NCBI RefSeq assembly: GCF_049720995.1
Contig: NZ_JBNASF010000004.1
Location: 2,683-34,682 of the forward strand
Length of the DNA stretch: 32,000 nt
Direction of reading: 5' to 3'
Origin: Methanothermobacter sp.
Lineage (GTDB): Archaea; Methanobacteriota; Methanobacteria; Methanobacteriales; Methanothermobacteraceae
Under the pieces are notes generated by a model. It saw nothing but the letters and a program-made list of their open reading frames with translations. It had not been told where the DNA came from and did not search any database. Shown here one piece after another: positions 12,447 to 22,145 of the stretch; the stretch's first letter is position 1; each line of letters begins with the position of its first letter. The translations under genes and the position numbers were made by a program.

Positions 12447-13010
12447 CTACCCTGATACGTTACCACGCACCTGGGCCTGGTCTGCGGTGAACCTGAAGGG
12501 TGAGCCGCCACCTCCGGCTATTGAGAACGACATGATTACACTTCCAGTGGGGTTCTTACGGTAGTCAAAGGGGCCGCTGATGGTCCAGGAGTAGGTCTGG
12601 TTTCCAATCTTCAGTGTCCACCTTCCCCTCTGGCCTATGCCCTTTAGGTCATCAGCACCTCCCATGGGGTCACCGACACCACCCTCCACCGTGAAACTGG
12701 TGCCGGCGCTCATCCGTCCAAGGTTGAAGGTCCTGCTTGATCCTGGCTGGAGGAGGAAGAAGTAGTTTCCAGGGTCCCCTGATATGATGTGCCGGCTGCC
12801 CCCATCTGTGGTGTTATTGGCCTCATAGATGAACTTGCTCTTCGACGGACCTATATTGGTTACTGTGAGCTTCACCTCAACTGTCTCGTTACCCGGGACC
12901 TTGAAGTAGGAGCTGTATATGTAGAGGGCTGCAACCGCGATTATTATGATGGCTGCGAAAAGAAGTATGTACTCTGCACCCCCCTGTCCACCTCTATCCT
13001 TCATTATCAT
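12447..13010 (-). CDS. Class III (type IV pilin-like) signal-peptide protein, putative archaeal pilin or surface-structure subunit
   Basis: The N-terminus [32 protein letters not shown] has the archaeal prepilin pattern: a basic residue-Gly, then Q..E, then a hydrophobic helix. The rest is beta-rich and looks extracellular. There is no SD, and tatataaata lies ~25 nt upstream, suggesting a leaderless transcript. Confidence 0.6.
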
Positions 13011-13057
13011 GTAAGATATATATTGTATGATTATTTATATAAAACTGAGGTGTGACA

Positions 13058-13297
13058 ATGGGACCCGGGGCAGCTTCTGAAACTCCGCCTGTGAGCATGG
13101 AGGTTATATTAACTGCGGCGGCCGTGACCCTTGCGGTTGCAGCGGTCATCATACTGATTTTATTTATAGGTAAACGCAAGAGGTCAGGGAAGGAAGAGGA
13201 AAAACCTCTCAGGCCAGAGGTGTCAAAGAACGAGGATATAATATCCCAGCTCAAGGAGGAATACGGGGTTTCCGATGATGATTCAGGGGACGATTAA
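13058..13297 (+). CDS. Small single-pass membrane protein with basic then acidic C-terminal tail
   Basis: ATG 13058 with GAGGTGTGA 2 nt upstream (its GGTGT core 4 nt upstream). TM helix VILTAAAVTLAVAAVIILILFIG followed by KRKRSGKEEE...DDDSGDD. It ends 20 nt before the first Mur-type ligase gene. Confidence 0.55.
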   Translation: MGPGAASETPPVSMEVILTAAAVTLAVAAVIILILFIGKRKRSGKEEEKPLRPEVSKNEDIISQLKEEYGVSDDDSGDD

Positions 13298-13317
13298 AAG
13301 TTAAGATCGGTGAACCA

Positions 13318-14529
13318 ATGAGGGTTGCGGTGCTGGGACTTGGAGCTGAAGGTTTGAGGGCAGTTGAGTCACTGAAGAGAAGGGGTCACAGCGTATATGC
13401 AAGTGACATACGGCGTGAAATCCCTGTAAACCCTGAGGGGGTTGACCTTGACCTTGGCTTTCATGATACAGGGAAAATAGAGGCTGCAGATGCGGTTGTA
13501 ATCAGCCCATCAATGATAAAAACTGAACTCATGGAGCGGTTCAGTGATAAGCTCCTCTGCAGGGTCCTTGAGGGCCACAGAAAACCCAGAACCATCGCGG
13601 TCACAGGGACCAACGGCAAGACCACAACCGCCACAATGATAGCACATGTACTTGAATGTGCAGGTAAGAGGGTACTTCTTGGCGGGAATGCTGGCGGAGG
13701 ATTTGATGGCTACACAGAACTCCTTTTAAGGGCATCTGAGGAGGAATTTGACTACCTTGTGGTTGAGGTCTGCGATATGACCCTGGAATTCGCATCAGAG
13801 TGCTTTGACATTGACCTCGTTGTCCTCACAAACCTTGGCGAGGACCACATGGACTTCCACGGTTCAATGGAGAACTACAGAATGGCAATGGCAGAATTCC
13901 TGAGGGGAAGGGATGCTGTAATCGGCCCCGGGGATTCAGATGAAGAACTCAAAGAGGTCCCCTCCAGTCTCAGGACCTACAGTGAGTACACCGGGCCCCT
14001 GAGGGTTGAGGGCGGATTCAACAGACTGAACGCAGGGGCGGCATCAGAGGCCCTCAGGTATCTGGGTGTTCCAGAGGATATCATAGGGGATGGACTTGCC
14101 AGTTTCGAACCTGTGAGGGGTCGTATAAGGTCATTCATCATCAACGGGGCATCCGTTGTTGCTGGTAAAACCGACAACCCCCATGCCCTGAGGGCCGTAC
14201 TCTCAGAATCAGAATTCGATGTCATGTTCATCGGAACACCCCGGAGGTCAGAGAAGTGGCGCCTCCACATCCTTGATGAGGTCGCAGAGTCACCCCCGGA
14301 GGTCCTTGTGATATTCCCGGGGCTTGAGGACACGGTTGACATGGTAATGGAATACCTTGAGGGTCTTAAAATCCCATCAGAGGTCATAACAGTTGATGAA
14401 CCTGAGAAAATCCCCTGGATGGTCCTTGAGTTTTCCAGGAAATACAGGAGAATCTTCGTGGGTGGAAACGGGCAGGACAGGATAGCCACGGTCCAGGAAA
14501 AACTCGAGGAGATCTCCTCCTGTGAATGA
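13318..14529 (+). CDS. Mur-ligase-family ATP-dependent peptide ligase (MurD-like architecture); probable pseudomurein stem-peptide ligase
   Basis: GGTGA lies 4 nt before the ATG. The N-terminal Rossmann segment VAVLGLGAEGLRAV resembles MurD. P-loop VTGTNGKTTTATMIAHVL. Central-domain motifs LVVEVCD and NLGEDHMDFHG. 403 aa. Confidence 0.85.
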   Translation: MRVAVLGLGAEGLRAVESLKRRGHSVYASDIRREIPVNPEGVDLDLGFHDTGKIEAADAVVISPSMIKTELMERFSDKLLCRVLEGHRKPRTIAVTGTNGKTTTATMIAHVLECAGKRVLLGGNAGGGFDGYTELLLRASEEEFDYLVVEVCDMTLEFASECFDIDLVVLTNLGEDHMDFHGSMENYRMAMAEFLRGRDAVIGPGDSDEELKEVPSSLRTYSEYTGPLRVEGGFNRLNAGAASEALRYLGVPEDIIGDGLASFEPVRGRIRSFIINGASVVAGKTDNPHALRAVLSESEFDVMFIGTPRRSEKWRLHILDEVAESPPEVLVIFPGLEDTVDMVMEYLEGLKIPSEVITVDEPEKIPWMVLEFSRKYRRIFVGGNGQDRIATVQEKLEEISSCE

Positions 14530-14692
14530 ACAGCATCACCTGCGTAAGTGGTATATATGAATAACCATAATAATAACTGGACTGCATATTTCTCTAAAAG
14601 CCAGGAAACCTGGATTGATCATAAACTATTACTTCATGGCATGCATACCTTAAATTAAAACAGATCTATGGGTGCATAAATTGATCACGAAC

Positions 14693-17689
14693 ATGAAAGT
14701 GCTTGTGCTTGGAGCTGGAAACGCTGGCAGACCCGCCGCAAGATTGCTGAGACACCTTGGAAACAGTGTACTTGTAAATGACGTCAGGGAACTGGATGAA
14801 CTACCCCCAAAGGCCAGGAAGAGGATAGATGAGATGAAAGATGAGGGTGTGAGATTCAGGTTTGGGGGTCACAGGATTGAGGACATGCTATGGGCAGATG
14901 CCGTCTTCGTATCCCCCAGCATACCCCCTGATGCACCTGTACGTGATATGCTGGGGAGTGTGGAGAAGGATCTGATCCACATAACAACCTCAGACATAGG
15001 TAGGGTCCTCAACCAGCTCATAGGCATCCCCATGGTGGGAGTTGCAGGTACAGACGGGAAGACAACAACCACCAACATGATAGACCACATACTCTCATCA
15101 CGCCACAGGACGGTGTCATTCTCATCAATCCAGGACTCACTGGTAATTGAGGGACTTGTTGAACTCGTGGTGAATGGTGATGTGAACAGCAGGGACATGG
15201 CCGTATTTGAACTCCCACATGGAACCATAAGGATGGCTGATGGCCTTGAGATAGTGGCCGGGGTAGTGACAAACCTCACACCAGACCACATGGATGAGTT
15301 CAGGGACTACGATGAATACATTGAGAGGAACTTCTCAATAAAGAACCTCATAGCTCCAGGAGGTGTTCTGGTACTCTGTGGGGACGACCCGGTCATCGCG
15401 GGGCTCCTGGATGACCTTGAGGTTAAAAGTGTGGTTTATGGGCTGGGGAATGGAAGGACAGTTGAGTTCATGGATAGAACCTTCAGCGGCTCAGCAGAAC
15501 CACAGGTAAGCGCATCGGATATAGACCTCAGGGGTCTTGAGGGCTCAGAGTTCACCCTGAAGGTATCAGAGATACCAACGGCCCTCTGCAGCACCTGCGG
15601 ATCCCTGAACTGCGCGGAACATGAGGGGGTGGTCCATGCCGGTCCCCTCACAGAGAGGATAAAACTCAGGGTGCCGGGCCTCTTCAACGTGGAGAACGCC
15701 CTTGCAGCCATAACCGTTGCACTGGTACTCGGATTTGACATTAAGGACATCAAAAATGCAATAGAGGAATTCAGGGGTATAAAGGGTAGATTTGAATTCA
15801 TAGATCGGGTTGAGGGGGTCCCTGTTTACATGGACGCAGCACACAACCCTGAGAGTATGGAGAAACTTTTTGAGGGCATTGAATTCAAGGGGAGGCTGAT
15901 AATAAGCCTGGATAACCCCGACACCCTCACAGTGAGGGACAAGTACAGGATAGGTCAGATACTTGGTGAAAAAGCCGATGTATTGATTGTGAGCGGTAAA
16001 AATGAGACAACAGGTAAGATTGACATGGAAGCGGCCTCTGAGGTTGAAAGGGGCGCTGGCAGGGGTAAAACCATAAAGACCGATAGTGTATATGATAGCA
16101 TAAGGAGGGCACTTGAAATCGCCGAAAAGGGGGATACGGTACTCCACCTCGGCCCCGGGGTTGTCAACGCATATGACAATGTTAGGGATGATATTGAGAG
16201 GGCCATAGAGTCAATGAGGGACTTCACGGTTGTTCTTGGAGGCTGCGGGAATGTGGGAAGCCTCATGGCAAGGAACCTCCGGGCAAGGGGTTACCGGGTC
16301 GTTGTCTCGGATCTGAAGGAGAGTACACCCCTCGAGGATGTCTTCAGGGGTGAGGGAATAGAACTTGACCTGGGGGGTCACAGCATGGAGGTCCTCAGGG
16401 GCGCGTCCACCATAGCCATCACACCAGCCCTGGAGAATAACAGGAGGGTTCTTGACCTCATCAGGGACCTCAACGCTGATGTGATAGGTGTTGAGGACGT
16501 CCTGAACATGTGCCCCGTTGATAAACCTGTGGTGGGGGTCACAGGGACAAATGGAAAGACCACAACCACGGGTATCCTAAAATCCATAATGAGGGCTGCC
16601 GGAAAGACTGTGCCAGAGCACCACCTCAACATACAGGGCAACACTGAACTGGTACCGGCCCTCCAGGCAAGACTCCCTGGGGACGTGGCTGTGGTTGAGA
16701 TAGGGACATTCGGGAGGATGGGTGAGATAAGGCAATCAGCCCTTCTATCAGGGGTCTCAGTGGGCGTCATAACCAACATATCAAGGGACCACCTTTCAGG
16801 TGGAAGGAGGTTCTCTGATTACATTGAATGCAAGAGGGAGATCATTGATACAGCGGAGGTTCTGGTACTCAACGCCGATGACCCCATCGTCGCATCATTC
16901 GCAGAGGAACTGAGGGAGGAGAGAGCTGTGCTCTATGGCATCCAGAGCATGGAGTCATCCCAGGTCATGCCTGAGGGCAGGGAATGCCCCAGATGTGGCA
17001 ACCCCCTCAGATATACCCGCAGAACCATGGGGCACCTGGGGGATTACCTGTGTGTCTGCGGCTACCGGAGACCCCAGCCTGAGGTTATGGCCCTGGAGGC
17101 ATCAGCCACAGGATTCAAACTGGTAATTGGATCCGAAATGAGGGATGTGAAACTCAGGGCACCGGGGATCTTCAATGTCTACAATGCACTGGCAGCCGCT
17201 GCCGCCGCATGGTCCCTTGGCGTGAATATGGATGATATAGTAAGGGGAATTGAGTCATTTGGTGGTGTGAGGGGAAGGTTCCAGAGGCTGATGGACTCAC
17301 CACGGGTTATACTTGACTACGCCCACAACCCGGCCGGTGTGAGGGCTGTGATGCAGGAACTCAAAGGTACCGGCGGAAGGCTGATAGTCGTGAACACCGT
17401 GGCATCTGAGAGTGGAATAGATGGTGATCTGGAAATCGCATCACTCCTGAAGGATGCCGACACCGTTATACCGGCATCCTATGCTGCAAGGAGAGCCTCA
17501 GATATCCTGGGTAAGAGGGTGGTCCATATAGAATCCAGCAGAAAACGTGCAGGGTCCGGGACCCTTGGAGCTAACCGTGAACAGGTTGAGGAGGCTGTAA
17601 ATAAGGCCCTTGAAATTGCAGAACCAGATGACACTGTACTCATAATAGGTGAGGGGGGATTCAGATATGCAGAGGATTATATCAGTTAA
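14693..17689 (+). CDS. Tandem double Mur-ligase-family protein (two complete MurD-like modules in one frame); probable pseudomurein peptide ligases
   Basis: The track ORF starts at GTG 14672. ATG 14693 (MKVLVLGAGNAGRPAA) is preferred because a TATA-like ccttaaattaaaa at ~14650 would place the TSS after 14672. Module 1 has GxGxxG, AGTDGKTTTT and NLTPDHMDEF. Module 2 starts near ATG 16214 (MRDFTVVLGGCGNVGSLMA) and has TGTNGKTTTTG and NISRDHLSGG. No stop separates the modules. Cys clusters lie at 15587-15622 and 16985-17059. Confidence 0.85.
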   Translation: MKVLVLGAGNAGRPAARLLRHLGNSVLVNDVRELDELPPKARKRIDEMKDEGVRFRFGGHRIEDMLWADAVFVSPSIPPDAPVRDMLGSVEKDLIHITTSDIGRVLNQLIGIPMVGVAGTDGKTTTTNMIDHILSSRHRTVSFSSIQDSLVIEGLVELVVNGDVNSRDMAVFELPHGTIRMADGLEIVAGVVTNLTPDHMDEFRDYDEYIERNFSIKNLIAPGGVLVLCGDDPVIAGLLDDLEVKSVVYGLGNGRTVEFMDRTFSGSAEPQVSASDIDLRGLEGSEFTLKVSEIPTALCSTCGSLNCAEHEGVVHAGPLTERIKLRVPGLFNVENALAAITVALVLGFDIKDIKNAIEEFRGIKGRFEFIDRVEGVPVYMDAAHNPESMEKLFEGIEFKGRLIISLDNPDTLTVRDKYRIGQILGEKADVLIVSGKNETTGKIDMEAASEVERGAGRGKTIKTDSVYDSIRRALEIAEKGDTVLHLGPGVVNAYDNVRDDIERAIESMRDFTVVLGGCGNVGSLMARNLRARGYRVVVSDLKESTPLEDVFRGEGIELDLGGHSMEVLRGASTIAITPALENNRRVLDLIRDLNADVIGVEDVLNMCPVDKPVVGVTGTNGKTTTTGILKSIMRAAGKTVPEHHLNIQGNTELVPALQARLPGDVAVVEIGTFGRMGEIRQSALLSGVSVGVITNISRDHLSGGRRFSDYIECKREIIDTAEVLVLNADDPIVASFAEELREERAVLYGIQSMESSQVMPEGRECPRCGNPLRYTRRTMGHLGDYLCVCGYRRPQPEVMALEASATGFKLVIGSEMRDVKLRAPGIFNVYNALAAAAAAWSLGVNMDDIVRGIESFGGVRGRFQRLMDSPRVILDYAHNPAGVRAVMQELKGTGGRLIVVNTVASESGIDGDLEIASLLKDADTVIPASYAARRASDILGKRVVHIESSRKRAGSGTLGANREQVEEAVNKALEIAEPDDTVLIIGEGGFRYAEDYIS

Positions 17690-18836
17690 ACACATCATTT
17701 TGCTGGTGATTCTGGCGGCTATCATAACAGCATCGGGTGCATACATCGAGGGAAGCGTTGAACCCCAGCACCCGGGGGAGATAGCTGCCCTTGAGCCTGG
17801 AAGCACGGTACTGAAGGGTCAGGATGTTATCGATGAATCCCGGGTGAGGAGCGTCCCTCTCATACTCCACCCGGACTACCTGCTTGATGAATTCAACTAC
17901 ATGGACCCTGGAAACCTCCTCCAGGCGGTCCTCACAGGGGCTGTGCATGTCCCGATATCTGAGATGACCTCAGGGATAGACCCATCAGGGAGATCCACTG
18001 TGGATGGTCCGGGGGTGCTGAGGGTTTCAGGGGATAAACTGGTGGTGCAGGAGCCACCGGTCTTCCTCTGGGCCTACAAGACACCCTACACCTATGGTGT
18101 GAAGAGAGAGAATGGTATGGATATCATTGAGAACGGAAGGAAGGTTAGATTTGTCCCGGCAGATAGTATAGGTAACAGCACCGTCCCCCACAGGTACAGA
18201 TCCGTTAACAGGATAAAGAGCTGGTTCAGAAGGGCTGACGAGGGGGACGAGATAGTCCTGGACTACCAGCTATCCAACTTCAGCGACGGCAGACTCCCTG
18301 TTCCACCAGGGATGATAGAGAAACTCTTTGGTGGGGATGTTCTTGACTACATGGAGAACTACCCCTCAGGGGCGCCTGTAATGGTGTACACAGGGGGCCA
18401 CAGAAAGGTCCTGGTATCAACTGCAGTGAGCTACCTGGGCTCATACCCCCAGTACGATGATAACAGGAGGGCCTTCAATGCAAGGGCATTCGCTGAGGCA
18501 TGGAATGGCACTGTGATTCCACCTGGAAGTGAGGGTTCAGGTAAGGAGACAGTCAGGTTCACTGCATCAAGGGACCCTGAGGCCCCTGGCGGATACGCCT
18601 CCCACGGCTCATGTCCACCTGCAAGGGCACTCAGGGCCGTTGTAACTGATGCAGGGATGCCCCTCCCCAGGGGCATGACATGGGAGTTCCATGCGGTTCT
18701 ATTCGGCTTCAACCCGGCGACCGGGATAAAGGTCAGAAATACCGGAAGGTACCCTGTACTCATTGAGATGTGGACGACGGGTTCAGGTGCAGGTACAACC
18801 ATATACGCCAGAATCTACAGGCTTGAACCGGCATAG
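17667..18836 (+). CDS. N-terminally membrane-anchored extracytoplasmic protein with a VanW-like C-terminal region (tentative)
   Basis: ATG 17667 (MQRIISVKHIILLVILAAIITASGAY, a signal anchor) overlaps the upstream stop by 23 nt. The C-terminus GSCPPARALRAVVTDAGMPL...EFHAV...IKVRNTGRYPVLIEMWTTGSGAGTTIYARIY resembles the VanW pattern (GG.C...LY.A...AG...H...F.N.T.YP..I......L...IY). This is from memory and not searched. Confidence 0.65.
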   Translation: MQRIISVKHIILLVILAAIITASGAYIEGSVEPQHPGEIAALEPGSTVLKGQDVIDESRVRSVPLILHPDYLLDEFNYMDPGNLLQAVLTGAVHVPISEMTSGIDPSGRSTVDGPGVLRVSGDKLVVQEPPVFLWAYKTPYTYGVKRENGMDIIENGRKVRFVPADSIGNSTVPHRYRSVNRIKSWFRRADEGDEIVLDYQLSNFSDGRLPVPPGMIEKLFGGDVLDYMENYPSGAPVMVYTGGHRKVLVSTAVSYLGSYPQYDDNRRAFNARAFAEAWNGTVIPPGSEGSGKETVRFTASRDPEAPGGYASHGSCPPARALRAVVTDAGMPLPRGMTWEFHAVLFGFNPATGIKVRNTGRYPVLIEMWTTGSGAGTTIYARIYRLEPA

Positions 18837-19484
18837 GTGGTGGGATTGGTCTCAGCGGTTGTTACAGCGGCAGGGAGGGGTAGCCGTATGTGCAGGGACA
18901 TGCTGGAACTCGGCCTTGAACCCATCCACAAATTACTGCTCCCCCTCAACTCAGTTACTGTAATAGAAAAGACGGTGGATTCCGTGCTCAGGGCAGGTGT
19001 GGATGAGTGCATCGTGGTCACAGGCCACCATGCAGGGGAGGTGGAGGCGGCGATATCAGGTATGGATGTGGAGATTGTGAGGAACGATCCTGCTGAGGTT
19101 CCACTATCAGCATCACTCCTAAATGGTGTTCTCGCTGCTTCGGGTGAAATCATACTCTGCGTGGCAGGTGACCAGCCGGCGGTATCCCCCGGGACCATGG
19201 GGAGAATCAGTGAACATGCGGATCATGAGACGGTTTCGGTACTTGCAAGGGGAAGCAGTGGCTGGCTTGAGAGTGCTGAGGGCCTCGGGATGCCCCTTGC
19301 AGCGAGTTCAGAGGTCCTTAAAAAATATCTCCCCCTGGGTGATGGCAACATAAATCCGCTGCTGCGTTTGATGGTGGATGATGGCATCAGACTGTACGGT
19401 GTTGAGGCATCAGACCCCATTGAACTTGTAAATATAAACCACTACAGTGATTACCTCAGAATAAGGGGTTATCCTGGGGTTTAA
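18837..19484 (+). CDS. MobA-like/NTP_transf_3-type nucleotidyltransferase
   Basis: GTG start directly after the upstream TAG. The N-terminus VVTAAGRGSRM is the G-x-G-x-R NTP-binding loop of the GT-A-fold nucleotidyltransferases (MobA/MocA/IspD type). About 215 aa. Last gene of the ligase operon. Confidence 0.75.
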   Translation: MVGLVSAVVTAAGRGSRMCRDMLELGLEPIHKLLLPLNSVTVIEKTVDSVLRAGVDECIVVTGHHAGEVEAAISGMDVEIVRNDPAEVPLSASLLNGVLAASGEIILCVAGDQPAVSPGTMGRISEHADHETVSVLARGSSGWLESAEGLGMPLAASSEVLKKYLPLGDGNINPLLRLMVDDGIRLYGVEASDPIELVNINHYSDYLRIRGYPGV

Positions 19485-19510
19485 ACCACTGCTGTGATTA
19501 CCTCAGAATA
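19437..19510. repeat. Direct duplication of the nucleotidyltransferase 3' region (27 nt, 3 mismatches, period 47)
   Basis: aaccactacagtgattacctcagaata (19437-19463, inside the last codons) recurs as aaccactgctgtgattacctcagaata (19484-19510), starting at the last base of the stop codon. Confidence 0.85.
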
Positions 19511-19576: not shown

Positions 19577-19786
19577 CTAGAATTCCTTTTCCTCGGTCTC
19601 CTCTTCAAGAAGATCCAGTCTATCCTCAATCTCTTCAAGGAGCTTACCCACGTTCCTGAGGATCTCAAGGGTGTCATAGATCCAGTTTATAACAAGCTCC
19701 TGGTCTGCCTCACCCTCATACTTCTTTATCTTCTCCTCGAGGTCAGCAACATCCTCAAGGATCCTGAAGGTCTTTGTCTCAACCAC
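19577..19786 (-). CDS. Small acidic coiled-coil protein, unknown function
   Basis: 69 aa, E/D/L-rich helical (…DVADLEEKIKKYEGE…LLEEIEDRLDLLEEETEEKEF). It lies 30 nt downstream of the DUF169 gene on the same strand. Confidence 0.5.
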   Translation of the reverse strand: MVETKTFRILEDVADLEEKIKKYEGEADQELVINWIYDTLEILRNVGKLLEEIEDRLDLLEEETEEKEF

Positions 19787-19816: not shown

Positions 19817-20506
19817 CTACTGGCTTATGGCCTCAAGGGCATTGACAACACACCCTATGTTCTCGCCGTTGAGTCCCACGATGAGTTCGTCGTCCCTTAC
19901 ACCGGCGTACTGCCTTGAACCGCTGCACCCCATGGTTATATTTGGCCTCTTCCTCATGTAGGGCCCTGCAACTGCGTCTGCACAGAGTGACTGTATACCT
20001 GAGAAGTCAGCCTCCACGCGGCCACCGAGGGTGTATACGAGGGCCTGTGAGATCTTCATTGCCTGGGCAGGGTTGCAGATGATCACTATGACGTCAGGGT
20101 CAAAGGTTGCATCCTCAAGGGGTGCGTACACTGCGGCGTAGAACCTGAGGTCAAGGGAGGGTATCCCATCAAAGGTTCTCTTGGCGGATGCAAAGCTTGC
20201 AAAGCGACCAAGGTTGTAGTAGAACTCCCCTGTTTTGACCTTCTCTGGCGCCTCATCTATTCCAAGGGCATCTGCACCACCCTTGCATGCCTGGGCCTCC
20301 GCCGTTGCATAGAATGATTTCCCTGCAGCAGCCATCTGGACCATTTCACAGTGCCTTGCAGGCTTCTCTATTTTTTCAACACCCTCCGGAAGGTCATCCT
20401 CCCTTAGAACGAGTTTTATCGCCACCGGGGACTTCTCAAGTCCAAGGAGGGTTTTCAGCTTTTCTGATATCTCATCATATCCATTCACAGCGCATACATC
20501 AACCAC
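19817..20506 (-). CDS. DUF169 (COG2043)-family protein
   Basis: 229 aa. The pattern SPVAIKLV...ARHCEMVQMAAAGKSFYATAEAQACKGGADALGI...MGCSGSRQY matches my recollection of DUF169. Confidence 0.7.
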   Translation of the reverse strand: MVDVCAVNGYDEISEKLKTLLGLEKSPVAIKLVLREDDLPEGVEKIEKPARHCEMVQMAAAGKSFYATAEAQACKGGADALGIDEAPEKVKTGEFYYNLGRFASFASAKRTFDGIPSLDLRFYAAVYAPLEDATFDPDVIVIICNPAQAMKISQALVYTLGGRVEADFSGIQSLCADAVAGPYMRKRPNITMGCSGSRQYAGVRDDELIVGLNGENIGCVVNALEAISQ

Positions 20507-20515
20507 AAGATCACC

Positions 20516-20707
20516 TCAATCAATAATCTTCACGGGTTTACCGTACTGGCGTTTCTCGAGATGGCCACAGTCGCGGCACCTGTAGATCACCAGGATGAAG
20601 TTTCCTGATTCAGGGTATGTCTCCTCAACCTCATCTGCAACTCCACCGCAGACACTGCACCTCACCCTTTCTGGCTGATCCATTCTGTAGTGTATCATCA
20701 GAACCAC
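20516..20707 (-). CDS. Small zinc-ribbon protein
   Basis: 63 aa or shorter (alternative ATG starts at codons 4 and 9). CSVCGG...CRDCGH four-Cys ribbon. 9 nt upstream of the DUF169 gene; ttaatata lies upstream. Confidence 0.5.
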   Translation of the reverse strand: MVLMIHYRMDQPERVRCSVCGGVADEVEETYPESGNFILVIYRCRDCGHLEKRQYGKPVKIID

Positions 20708-20831: not shown

Positions 20832-21566
20832 TTATGATGGGATGTCAGTGGAGTCAAGGGTTCTTACAAACTCCCGGGCATGTTCCAGGGTTCTTGAATA
20901 GTCCTGGTACATGTAGTTCTCATAGAGTATGGCCGGTGTTCCCCCCTGAATTATGGGTTCAGTCACATAGGCGGGGCTTGTCTGTGACTCAGGGAAGTGG
21001 TAGGATAGCCAGCTGATTCTGGATGCGAGTTTCAGGGCTATCAATCTGCTTTGCTCATGGGGGAGTGGTGTGAAAACGAACCTCTTCATACCATAGTTGC
21101 CCCTGTTGGAGTGCACATCAACTGCCAGGCTGTAGTTGCCCCTGGCTACATCTGGGACCACGTATCTTCGTGCAAGGAGCTGTCCCGCCATCCTCCCCCT
21201 TTCGTAGTCCTCAGGGTTAAGTGTAACGTTGACCCGGTATACGAAGTACACGTACCTCAGTTTTTCCTGGTTCTCCTCAAGGGCCTGCAGTATTGCCCTG
21301 TGGGAGTCCCTCTCCAGGGGGTGGACCCCTGTTATGTAGGCTATTTTCACCTCTGAGTCCCTGTTACCGTAGGGTCCAAGTTTCTCAACTGTGCCCATCT
21401 TATCTGAGCCAAGAACCACAGCTTCGTTCCTGTTATCTGTACTGTGGAAGGAGGGGTTCAGAAGGTAAAAAGTGATTAAAGCTCCGGTGATTATAAATGG
21501 GAGGATCAATTTTCTCTGCATGGTGAACTTCCATTGGTATTGATCGTAAGAACTCTGTTCACTCAA
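20832..21566 (-). CDS. Membrane-anchored extracytoplasmic protein with HxxE...H zinc-carboxypeptidase/deacylase-like motif arrangement (tentative)
   Basis: TTG 21566 per the track; ATG 21518 (MQRKLILPFIITGALITFYLL, TM anchor) is a plausible true start. IAYITGVHPLERDSH (HxxE), NPEDYERGR, LAVDVHSNRG and AILYENY resemble the M14/AstE-type metal-ligand layout. Confidence 0.6.
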   Translation of the reverse strand: MSEQSSYDQYQWKFTMQRKLILPFIITGALITFYLLNPSFHSTDNRNEAVVLGSDKMGTVEKLGPYGNRDSEVKIAYITGVHPLERDSHRAILQALEENQEKLRYVYFVYRVNVTLNPEDYERGRMAGQLLARRYVVPDVARGNYSLAVDVHSNRGNYGMKRFVFTPLPHEQSRLIALKLASRISWLSYHFPESQTSPAYVTEPIIQGGTPAILYENYMYQDYSRTLEHAREFVRTLDSTDIPS

Positions 21567-21599: not shown

Positions 21600-22145
21600 T
21601 CAGACATTTATAACTTCTGGTAGAGTCCCTGTTCTCCTGTATTCAACAAGAACCTGTCTGAAGATCTTCCTTGCAAGTGATGGTGTTATGTCGGGGGATC
21701 CCTCAACATAGATACCAACATGGTTGGGGCTTCTGCCATTGGCGTCCATCCAGGTGTATGTGCGCTCCGCCATATCTGTGTATTCGCTCCTTGTAAGGGT
21801 GACGGTATCCATAAATCCATAGGGGTCCTCAGGTCCACCGTATTCACTCACATGAATCTTTCCTGTCTCATTGGCTTCCAGCATCACAATCCCCCTTGCA
21901 AAGATGTACAGTAGCTGGGGGCCTGTGAAGTTGAATCCCCTGTACGTCACTGTACCGTTACCTGAGTCCATCTCTGCAAGTTCAAGAACAGCCTGAAGGT
22001 TAAGCTGGTATCCATCTGAGGTTTTTTCAACCACTGCATCTTTTGTCTCTACAGGCATGCTCTGGGGTATGAACTGTATAACAACAGCTACGGCAAGAAG
22101 GAAAAATGTCATGGCAGTTAAAATAGGTATATTCCTTTCATTCAT
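21600..22145 (-). CDS. Membrane-anchored pseudomurein-binding-repeat (PMBR)-like protein
   Basis: GGGGGTG SD 5 nt before the ATG. N-terminal TM IPILTAMTFFLLAVAVVIQFI. The C-terminal LTRSEYTDMAERTYTWMDANGRSPNHVGI...ITPSLARKIFRQVLVEYRRTGTLPEVINV matches the PMBR pattern known from the N-termini of PeiW/PeiP (Y.dMa.r...f...nGr.PnyV). Confidence 0.65.
   Translation of the reverse strand: MNERNIPILTAMTFFLLAVAVVIQFIPQSMPVETKDAVVEKTSDGYQLNLQAVLELAEMDSGNGTVTYRGFNFTGPQLLYIFARGIVMLEANETGKIHVSEYGGPEDPYGFMDTVTLTRSEYTDMAERTYTWMDANGRSPNHVGIYVEGSPDITPSLARKIFRQVLVEYRRTGTLPEVINV

Follow-up and report, generated by a model that had tools for sequence, protein, structure and literature searches.

A VanW-like domain in PmurA, a predicted membrane-anchored protein of the Methanothermobacter pseudomurein operon, and its possible role in wall cross-linking

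The DNA analysed here (the window, a stretch of 32,000 nucleotides from Methanothermobacter sp. with a G+C content of 50%) carries at positions 13058–19484 an operon that is very probably the known Methanothermobacter pseudomurein stem-peptide operon, i.e. Gene Cluster 1 type 1A of Subedi 2021 and cluster B of Lupo 2025. It encodes the Mur-type ligases pMurD2, pMurD1 and pMurC together with two partner proteins, PmurA (Mfer335 family) and PmurB (Mfer334 family). The operon itself adds nothing new, since three descriptions of this cluster exist and NCBI naming models cover it. What is new is a supported link between PmurA and the VanW domain, which contradicts the role so far assumed for PmurA and makes the missing cross-linking step of pseudomurein directly testable. 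We tentatively propose that PmurA may be the missing pseudomurein cross-linker, an archaeal offshoot of the VanW fold that would use Cys316 with His313 and not the bacterial His/Asp pair, a proposal to which we give less than an even chance.

PmurA scored 535.7 bits against the NCBIfam model NF053640 ('Mfer335 family protein PmurA', cut-off 400), covering positions 1–378 of 378. It comprises a predicted N-terminal membrane anchor, a family-specific domain of about 215 amino acids (approximately residues 40–254) and a VanW-like C-terminal domain. An alignment of 41 PmurA family members, which was also the basis of an AlphaFold2 (AF2) model of PmurA, was compared with a diverse alignment of VanW domains taken from 14 annotated plasmid-borne genes of Bacillota, Actinomycetota, Deinococcota, Bacteroidota and Pseudomonadota. 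With the C-terminal 135 residues of the PmurA family, hhalign returned a score of 46.6 (93.6%, P 2.1e-7) over 113 columns spanning VanW positions 7–139 of 151, i.e. nearly the whole domain. The reversed VanW profile scored 11.1, 150 column shuffles gave a mean of 12.2 and a maximum of 20.1, and 150 shuffles of 8-column blocks gave a mean of 16.2 and a maximum of 32.5. The PmurA N-terminal domain scored 14.5 against the VanW domain, and it matched nothing in the N- and C-terminal flanks of bacterial VanW proteins in hhalign (18.2 and 9.5, respectively). VanW was also the sole Pfam family that recurred among the weak matches of PmurA members (15 of 41, best E 0.0091). The preliminary description, which was made from the sequence alone, had called PmurA VanW-like; the profile comparison bears this out, yet the similarity lies under the Pfam threshold.

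The AF2 model of PmurA (predicted local distance difference test score 91) consists of a helix at residues 7–30 followed by two mainly beta domains. When it was compared with an AF2 model of VanW-B, seven of eight secondary-structure elements were found in the same order (helix, two strands, a helix starting at Cys, three strands), VanW-B having an extra hairpin. Cys316 of PmurA aligned in hhalign with the Cys of the VanW GGGxCQ motif, and in the two models each of these Cys residues lies at a helix N-terminus. Cys316 is the only Cys in most PmurA members and belongs to the block A-x-H-G-x-C-P-x-x-R-x-x-R, in which H313, G314, C316, P317, R320 and R323 were invariant in the 41 sequences; D207, R209, Y228, R268, N271, W279, N358 and W369 were invariant as well. 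We consider it likely that PmurA is a remote homologue of VanW, and describe it as VanW-like without filing it as a member of the VanW family.

Several results weigh against this homology. PmurA reached 12.5 bits (E 0.1) against Pfam VanW (PF04294), under the gathering score of 27, and a narrow profile built from VanW-B only (27 close relatives) gave a non-significant P of 0.055, the signal being seen only with the diverse alignment. The diverse VanW hidden Markov model (HMM) scored at most 11 bits against PmurA sequences (Mur-ligase decoys, at most 2 bits). No VanW protein was reached when 1.84 billion proteins were searched with a PmurA profile, and the few matches outside the family, beta-sandwich proteins of a repetitive kind (fn3, NHL, Ig), seem to be spurious. 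At the aligned positions PmurA does not conserve the VanW triad His and Asp, the His column being Met337 and the Asp column a variable N/D/S/R/Y. If the similarity were a matter of chance or of convergent short motifs in proteins of unrelated fold and function, the sub-threshold sequence-to-profile results and the unconserved triad would speak for it, as would a Foldseek search in which the PmurA model found nothing in the PDB (best E 0.03, TM-score about 0.1) or BFVD. The PDB null is uninformative because the PDB holds no VanW structure, the hhalign score exceeded the maxima of both shuffled sets over a long alignment, and the order of secondary-structure elements agrees in independently predicted models; we regard chance or convergence as improbable. 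The assumption of published work that PmurA is a possible glutamate kinase or NTPase has arguments of its own. The gene lies between, and is translationally coupled to, those of cytoplasmic enzymes, the pathway still misses a phosphoryl-transfer enzyme, purified M. ruminantium PMurA degraded ATP to ADP and AMP (Cha 2026, PMC12996149), and the authors of that study and of Subedi 2021 prefer a phosphoryl-transfer role (PMC12996149, PMC10117817). However, the expected Glu-phosphate was not detected with PMurA (PMC12996149), and Pfam, NCBIfam and PDB profile searches found no kinase, NTPase or P-loop family in PmurA. Its sole P-loop-like string, GSEGSGKE, is not conserved (consensus ssGKE in the 41 members) and probably explains a weak kinesin match among the PDB profiles (E about 0.1). 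The predicted topology also argues against this role. In nearly all full-length members the one hydrophobic segment is N-terminal, K/R-rich on its N side and acidic on its C side. A lone Cys is typical of the family, and in homologues from Methanobrevibacter and Methanosphaera there are as many as 19 N-x-S/T sequons together with C-terminal tails rich in Asn, Ser and Thr. By the positive-inside rule PmurA is likely to be oriented N-in/C-out with its body outside the membrane, a location that is hard to square with making the cytoplasmic UDP-Glu precursor. Against this topology, Lupo 2025 predicted neither a transmembrane (TM) segment nor a signal peptide for the PmurA orthogroup (PMC11915815); the membrane-anchored Cys/His protein of the preliminary description is consistent with the anchor and flank charges predicted across the family. 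With the VanW-like C-terminal domain added to these points, a phosphoryl-transfer enzyme of the precursor pathway, as in published schemes, appears quite improbable.

A scan of one genome per species gave 197 loci encoding a PmurA relative, and the best 80 of these 197, which were read, were all of Methanobacteriales type. PmurB lay directly downstream of PmurA in 75 of the 77 loci with room, and a Mur-type ligase directly upstream in 72 of 74 (pMurD2 in 46, pMurC in 26); pMurD2 was found directly 5' of either PmurA or pMurD1 in related loci. All 86 word-indexed matches of PmurA were likewise of Methanobacteriales type, and the profile HMM search of the 1.84 billion proteins gave only 75 matches at E ≤ 0.001, so that by word index, genome loci and profile search the family was confined to pseudomurein archaea. 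The preliminary description had made its operon reading depend on synteny of the partner genes with Mur-type ligases in other pseudomurein producers and on the absence of the gene set elsewhere; PmurA and PmurB showed that synteny in Methanobacteriales, and PmurA homologues occurred only in pseudomurein-type archaea. One lineage with 62% G+C (loci L095–L097), which is probably Methanopyrus-like, speaks against a strict link to the operon: its PmurA homologue P0188, 31% identical to PmurA and with the motif AAHGCCPPARALR retained, adjoins neither a Mur ligase nor PmurB within 7 kb. The neighbours of P0188 are a MoaA-like radical SAM gene, with which it shares 4 nt, and an alanyl-tRNA synthetase gene that follows it. 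A further locus (L009, JBNGDB010000006.1, protein P0108) comes from a metagenome-assembled genome labelled 'Methanomicrobiales archaeon' and shows the order MsrA ... pMurD2-PmurA-PmurB-DUF169; because this synteny is characteristic of Methanobacteriaceae, an error in the taxon label or in the binning is probable.

To our knowledge, pseudomurein cross-linking has yet to be demonstrated for any enzyme, and unclustered extracellular transglutaminases are the field's working guess. In organisms without a penicillin-binding protein (PBP), a Cys protein encoded inside the stem-peptide operon would, as a transpeptidase, fit this gap in the way that ftsI does among the mur genes. Cross-linking requires removal of the terminal residue, and no PBP-like enzyme is present in these organisms (PMC2812497, PMC10117817). 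VanW domains were shown only in 2024 to be Cys-dependent L,D-transpeptidases (LDTs) in which the Cys of GGGxCQ is required for transpeptidation (PMC11348318). Outside the membrane, PmurA would most likely carry out thiol-based acyl transfer on the stem peptide: Cys316, aided by His313, would become thioacylated by the stem as the terminal Ala is released, and an amine on a neighbouring stem would then accept the acyl group. His313, which is invariant, may stand in for the VanW His. Cross-linking as the actual function of PmurA is possible, at odds that we put below or not far below even. The main rival to it is a wall-side Cys enzyme that does not cross-link, such as a carboxypeptidase or endopeptidase that trims or remodels stems, or one by which proteins or polymers become attached to pseudomurein. 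The same structural and topological evidence fits such an enzyme, VanW-type LDTs are also carboxypeptidases, even as Cys-to-Ala mutants (PMC11348318), the chemistry may differ as the VanW His and Asp are not conserved, and extracellular transglutaminase-like proteins are still candidate cross-linkers. These transglutaminases, however, are not clustered with any wall gene, and the near-invariant position of PmurA in the stem-peptide operon of Methanobacteriales, within pseudomurein producers, suits an essential biosynthetic step better than remodelling; we consider the rival role somewhat unlikely and retain cross-linking as our working proposal for PmurA. Among the publications searched, we found none tying VanW to pseudomurein or Mfer335, or a VanW-like protein to pseudomurein cross-linking. 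If a cross-linking PmurA were confirmed, the shared ancestry of murein and pseudomurein would extend to an extracellular step with kinship to the VanW-type L,D-transpeptidation of Gram-positive bacteria, cross-linking would be independent of transglutaminases, and pathway schemes would have to be corrected, PmurA not being a glutamate kinase. The protein would also be a methanogen-specific, surface-exposed drug target (rumen methane mitigation, gut Methanobrevibacter).

The cluster, its partner genes and its ligase fusion are already known. Gene Cluster 1 was defined as Mfer334 and Mfer335 with at least one C/D-type ligase; every pseudomurein producer had it and none of the other methanogens did, M. 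thermautotrophicus and M. marburgensis carrying type 1A (Subedi 2021, PMC10117817). The same study reported fused gene annotations, the N-terminal membrane segment of Mfer335 and the MobA/GlmU similarity of Mfer334, treated the Mfer335/Mfer334 pair as invariant partners, and put Mfer334 forward for nucleotidyl transfer. The gene set was recovered again as cluster B, with a Mur-alpha/Mur-beta fusion in Methanothermobacter and Methanobrevibacter (Lupo 2025, PMC11915815). More recently, PMurB, PMurC (which joined Ala or Thr to a UMP-Glu analogue) and PMurE (which added Lys) were reported to be active in vitro, and PMurD hydrolysed ATP and gave no product (Cha 2026, PMC12996149). In the window, pMurD2, pMurD1-pMurC, PmurA and PmurB were all present on the plus strand, and NCBIfam has curated models for every gene of the operon except that of the small TM protein. 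In line with the preliminary description, which had recognised a pseudomurein operon of a Methanobacteriales member, these models and a 100% identical ligase from Methanothermobacter sp. identify the region; its statement that the partner genes have no known function or assigned enzyme is out of date in view of Subedi 2021, Lupo 2025 and Cha 2026 and of the four families named in NCBIfam.

Among the ligases, in which Pfam Mur_ligase_M, Mur_ligase_C and MurD-like_N were found, pMurD2 matched Mur_ligase_M at 3.2e-22. NCBIfam equivalog models (NF053647, NF053646 and NF053645) were applied by comparing whole-protein scores with the curated cut-offs. pMurD2 scored 552.7 bits against NF053647 (cut-off 550) over model positions 1–405 of 405. 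The pMurD1 module scored 361.1 bits against NF053646 when taken alone and 476.8 bits as the fused open reading frame (ORF), below the cut-off of 610, and its next-best family, pMurC, reached only 145.1 bits; by best match and synteny the module is of pMurD1 type, without being a member by the NCBI criterion. Against NF053645 (pMurC, cut-off 560), the fused ORF scored 641.8 bits, partly from the paralogous module, and the pMurC module alone 501.9 bits. That the pMurD1 and pMurC modules taken singly fall under the curated cut-offs weighs against their assignment. The GxGxxG N-domain and P-loop that the preliminary description had noted in each of three modules were found at the expected places, with GLGAEG at 13336, GAGNAG at 14711 and GCGNVG at 16241 and with TGTNGKTTT at 13603, AGTDGKTTT at 15044 and TGTNGKTTT at 16541, the three P-loop segments being recovered also as a three-copy DNA repeat (family D1). 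The structural marks described for pMurC (Mfer336) are a GTNGKTTT P-loop with Asn and an inserted four-Cys Zn ribbon (PMC10117817, PMC12996149). Both are present in the pMurC module, namely the Asn-type P-loop at 16541 and a four-Cys segment (CPRC...CVC) at 16985–17065. The pMurD1 module contains a Cys-rich insert, CSTCGSLNCAEH, at 15587–15622, approximately at the site of the four-Cys Zn ribbon of pMurC; the insert could represent a metal site that is degenerate or variant, and could in part explain why the pMurD1 model scores low. As an identity for the ligases, CfbE/F430, MurT, cyanophycin synthetase and FolC were rejected, their models scoring far under the pMur models.

The second and third modules are fused, because codon 16211–16213 ahead of position 16214 reads TCA (Ser) and there is no stop between them. 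Depending on the start, the fused ORF encodes 998 (ATG 14693), 1002 (TTG 14681) or 1005 (GTG 14672) amino acids. The only support for an assembly or sequencing artefact, in which a stop between two genes was lost, is that pMurD1 and pMurC are separate genes in 13 of the 25 related loci where they are adjacent; in the other 12 they are fused. The fused ORF has a 100% identical counterpart in a 1002-aa 'Mur ligase family protein' of Methanothermobacter sp. and shares a 90% cluster with proteins of M. marburgensis (ADL58513.1) and M. wolfeii of 998–1002 aa. The fusion occurs in isolate genomes (M. marburgensis, M. wolfeii and several Methanothermobacter strains), about 50 distinct full-length fused homologues (980–1200 aa) were found in addition to the 12 loci of other genera, and the fusion is already in the literature, all of which makes an artefact extremely improbable. 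An alternative fusion, in which pMurD2 and pMurD1 are joined in frame (about 930 aa; homologues of 928–938 aa), was seen in 12 loci (L012, L016–L018, L020, L021, L028, L031, L032, L034, L037 and L054), of which those with a taxon label were Methanobacterium-type. In the 11 of these with a scorable pMurD1-pMurC junction, pMurC is a separate gene. No mention of the pMurD2-pMurD1 fusion was found in the publications consulted.

PmurB scored 266.6 bits against NF053639 ('pseudomurein biosynthesis protein PmurB', cut-off 260) and 76.6 bits against Pfam NTP_transf_3 (PF12804; cut-off 27, E 3.1e-21), and contains the motif AAGRGSRM at 18867, in agreement with its earlier description as a MobA-like nucleotidyltransferase. 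The suggestion that this gene is a candidate for nucleotide activation of Glu coincides with the step proposed in Subedi 2021 (PMC10117817). A 606-aa 'NTP transferase domain-containing protein' of Methanothermobacter sp. K4 (P0395, WP_237779656.1) consists of PmurA joined to PmurB by a frameshift. Its junction near the PmurA end reads the +1 frame of the PmurA 3' end, matching the window ORF 18763–18963, so that this frameshifted gene call was rejected as a true PmurA-PmurB fusion, which would have argued against an outside-facing PmurA; an error of sequencing or annotation is its probable origin. A 29-nt direct repeat (19435–19463 and 19482–19510, 93% identical, 47 nt apart) spans the PmurB stop and looks like a short duplication of the PmurB 3' end.

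In the pathway proposed for these proteins, PmurB as a MobA/MurU-like enzyme would make the UDP-linked glutamate starter, a step proposed in 2021 for which the M. ruminantium orthologue gave partial in-vitro support in 2026; the published PMurB assay used a UMP-Glu analogue and the reverse reaction (PMC12996149). At the gamma-carboxyl of UDP-Glu, pMurC would then attach Ala (in vitro with an orthologue, 2026), pMurE, which is encoded elsewhere, would add Lys (in vitro with an orthologue), and the last two residues, Ala and the gamma-linked Glu, would come from pMurD1 and pMurD2. That the three ligases may act as one assembly is suggested by the alternative fusions (pMurD1-pMurC, and pMurD2-pMurD1 in Methanobacterium). 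PmurA would act outside the membrane, as outlined above.

The positions of the operon features are given in Table 1. The preliminary description had listed six genes in this interval; all its coordinates are true ORF or module boundaries, but 16213/16214 is not a gene boundary, and the ORF list contains five same-strand ORFs, not six. Its account of genes packed in one direction, with PmurA overlapping the ligase stop and PmurB abutting the preceding stop, agrees with the coordinates: the fused ligase ORF (TAA 17687–17689) and PmurA share 23 nt, and PmurB starts at the base directly after the PmurA TAG (18834–18836), leaving a gap of 0 nt. The sequence GGTGAGGGGGG lies 8 nt 5' of the PmurA ATG. 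The small TM gene and pMurD2 are 20 nt apart, with GGTGA preceding the pMurD2 ATG, and the only sizeable gap of the operon is that between pMurD2 and the fused ligase ORF, which may hold an internal promoter (GTATATATG at about 14551). The intergenic region upstream of the small TM gene, with the TATA-like stretches GATATATATT and TTTATATAA and with GAGGTG ahead of ATG 13058, is the putative site of the operon promoter, judging from its sequence. An Rfam search found no RNA family in the window, and a scan for sigma-70 promoters and intrinsic terminators gave counts equal to those in shuffles, these models not being applicable to archaea.

Table 1. Features of the pseudomurein operon and adjoining regions, in window coordinates.
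Feature	Position	Strand	Basis or remark
Divergent A/T-rich intergenic region, 47 bp	13011–13057	.	Between pilin-like gene (12447–13010, minus strand) and operon
Small single-pass membrane protein, 79 aa	13058–13297	+	ATG 13058; alternative GTG 13052
pMurD2 (Mur-gamma of Lupo 2025), Mur-type peptide ligase, 403 aa	13318–14529	+	NCBIfam, Pfam
A/T-rich gap, 163 nt, pMurD2 to fused ligase ORF	14530–14692	.	Read from sequence
pMurD1-pMurC fusion, single ORF	14693–17689 (from GTG 14672 at longest)	+	ORF list, NCBIfam
pMurD1 module of fusion	14693–16213	+	Best NCBIfam family NF053646
pMurC module of fusion, stop included	16214–17689	+	NF053645
PmurA (Mfer335 family), 389 aa	17667–18836	+	NF053640
PmurA predicted membrane helix, aa 7–30	17685–17756	+	AF2 model
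PmurA VanW-like domain, aa 263–388	18453–18830	+	hhalign, AF2 model
PmurA His313-Gly-Ser-Cys316	18603–18614	+	Invariant motif A-[ST]-H-G-x-C-P-[PA]-x-R-x-L-R
PmurB (Mfer334 family), MobA-like nucleotidyltransferase, 215 aa	18837–19484	+	NF053639, Pfam NTP_transf_3

The small membrane protein at the start of the operon has a TM segment (13103–13171) followed by KRKR and by an acidic tail that ends in the motif LKEEYG, and matched no Pfam or NCBIfam family. Homologues (MGPG...TM...basic...LKEEYG...acidic) were found at the same place upstream of pMurD2 in only two related loci (L004 and L015), both of which also carry the divergent pilin-like gene, and for this reason the protein was rejected as a conserved operon partner. 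By sequence it is a lineage-restricted neighbour conserved only in close relatives, and the export or anchoring role once suggested for it finds no supporting case. The divergent gene in the window (12447–13010, minus strand) encodes a 187-aa protein whose signal peptide is of archaeal class III (type IV pilin-like; PF04021, E 1.6e-5).

Downstream of the operon, a DUF169 (COG2043) gene (19817–20506, minus strand) is convergent to PmurB. Of the 60 related loci whose flanks were long enough, 59 kept this arrangement (49 of them within 2.5 kb), often with a small coiled-coil ORF (19577–19786 in the window) and a zinc-ribbon ORF (20516–20707); we know of no wall-related role for DUF169. About 2 kb downstream of the operon, a 181-aa protein (21600–22145, minus strand) combines a membrane segment at its N-terminus with two pseudomurein-binding repeats (Pfam PMBR, E 8.8e-16) and is, from its domain content, wall-associated. 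The neighbouring 244-aa protein (20832–21566, minus strand), for which neither Pfam nor NCBIfam gave a family, has a hydrophobic signal-like segment at its N-terminus and contains H-x-x-E ... H motifs (HPLERDSH, VDVHSNRG). A possible identity for it is the pseudomurein-specific extracellular 'Zn peptidase' OG0000169 of Lupo 2025, which in M. thermautotrophicus lies three genes from the MobA-like gene (PMC11915815).

Compared with known systems, the operon shows the same gene order and orientation as the clusters of M. thermautotrophicus Delta H and M. marburgensis (pMurD2, pMurD1, pMurC, Mfer335-like, Mfer334-like), and its proteins share 90% clusters with M. marburgensis proteins. The pMurD1-pMurC (Mur-alpha/Mur-beta) fusion of the Methanothermobacter/Methanobrevibacter cluster is also common to it. 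There is no substantive difference from the published type 1A cluster, of which the upstream small TM gene is not a part. In bacterial MurE-MurF fusions, two consecutive Mur ligases likewise form one polypeptide, but here a MurC/D-like pair is joined, and the partner varies by genus (pMurD1-pMurC here, pMurD2-pMurD1 in Methanobacterium). In the bacterial dcw cluster (ftsI-murE-murF-mraY-murD-...-murC), Mur-type ATP-dependent ligases also lie side by side, with ftsI embedded among the mur genes, and, if the proposed role of PmurA is right, the operon would similarly hold the gene of a bitopic wall-side transpeptidase among its ligases. Gene content and order differ from those of dcw, with no PBP, FtsW, MurA or MurB homologues, and the stem peptide starts on UDP-Glu, not UDP-MurNAc. 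PmurB shares the NTP_transf_3 fold and the G-x-G-x-R-M signature with MurU, GlmU and MobA, and structural similarity of PMurB to MurU has been described (Cha 2026, PMC12996149), whereas its family (NF053639) is specific to pseudomurein archaea and its proposed acceptor is phospho-glutamate, not a sugar phosphate. With the VanW LDTs (C. difficile Ldt4 and Ldt5; PF04294), PmurA has in common a membrane anchor and wall-facing body (both predicted for PmurA), a similar domain size, the order of elements and the motifs N-x-x-x-A-x-x-x-N-G-x-x-I-x-P-G and x-K-V-x-N-x-x-x-x-P-[VI]-x-I. It differs in lacking the VanW His (HS) and Asp (DAT) at the aligned positions and the beta-hairpin of about 13–25 residues that precedes the Cys in VanW, and in having its own invariant His313 three residues before the Cys; in place of PG_binding_4 or G5 domains it carries its family-specific domain, and its substrate would be an all-L peptide with epsilon and gamma bonds.

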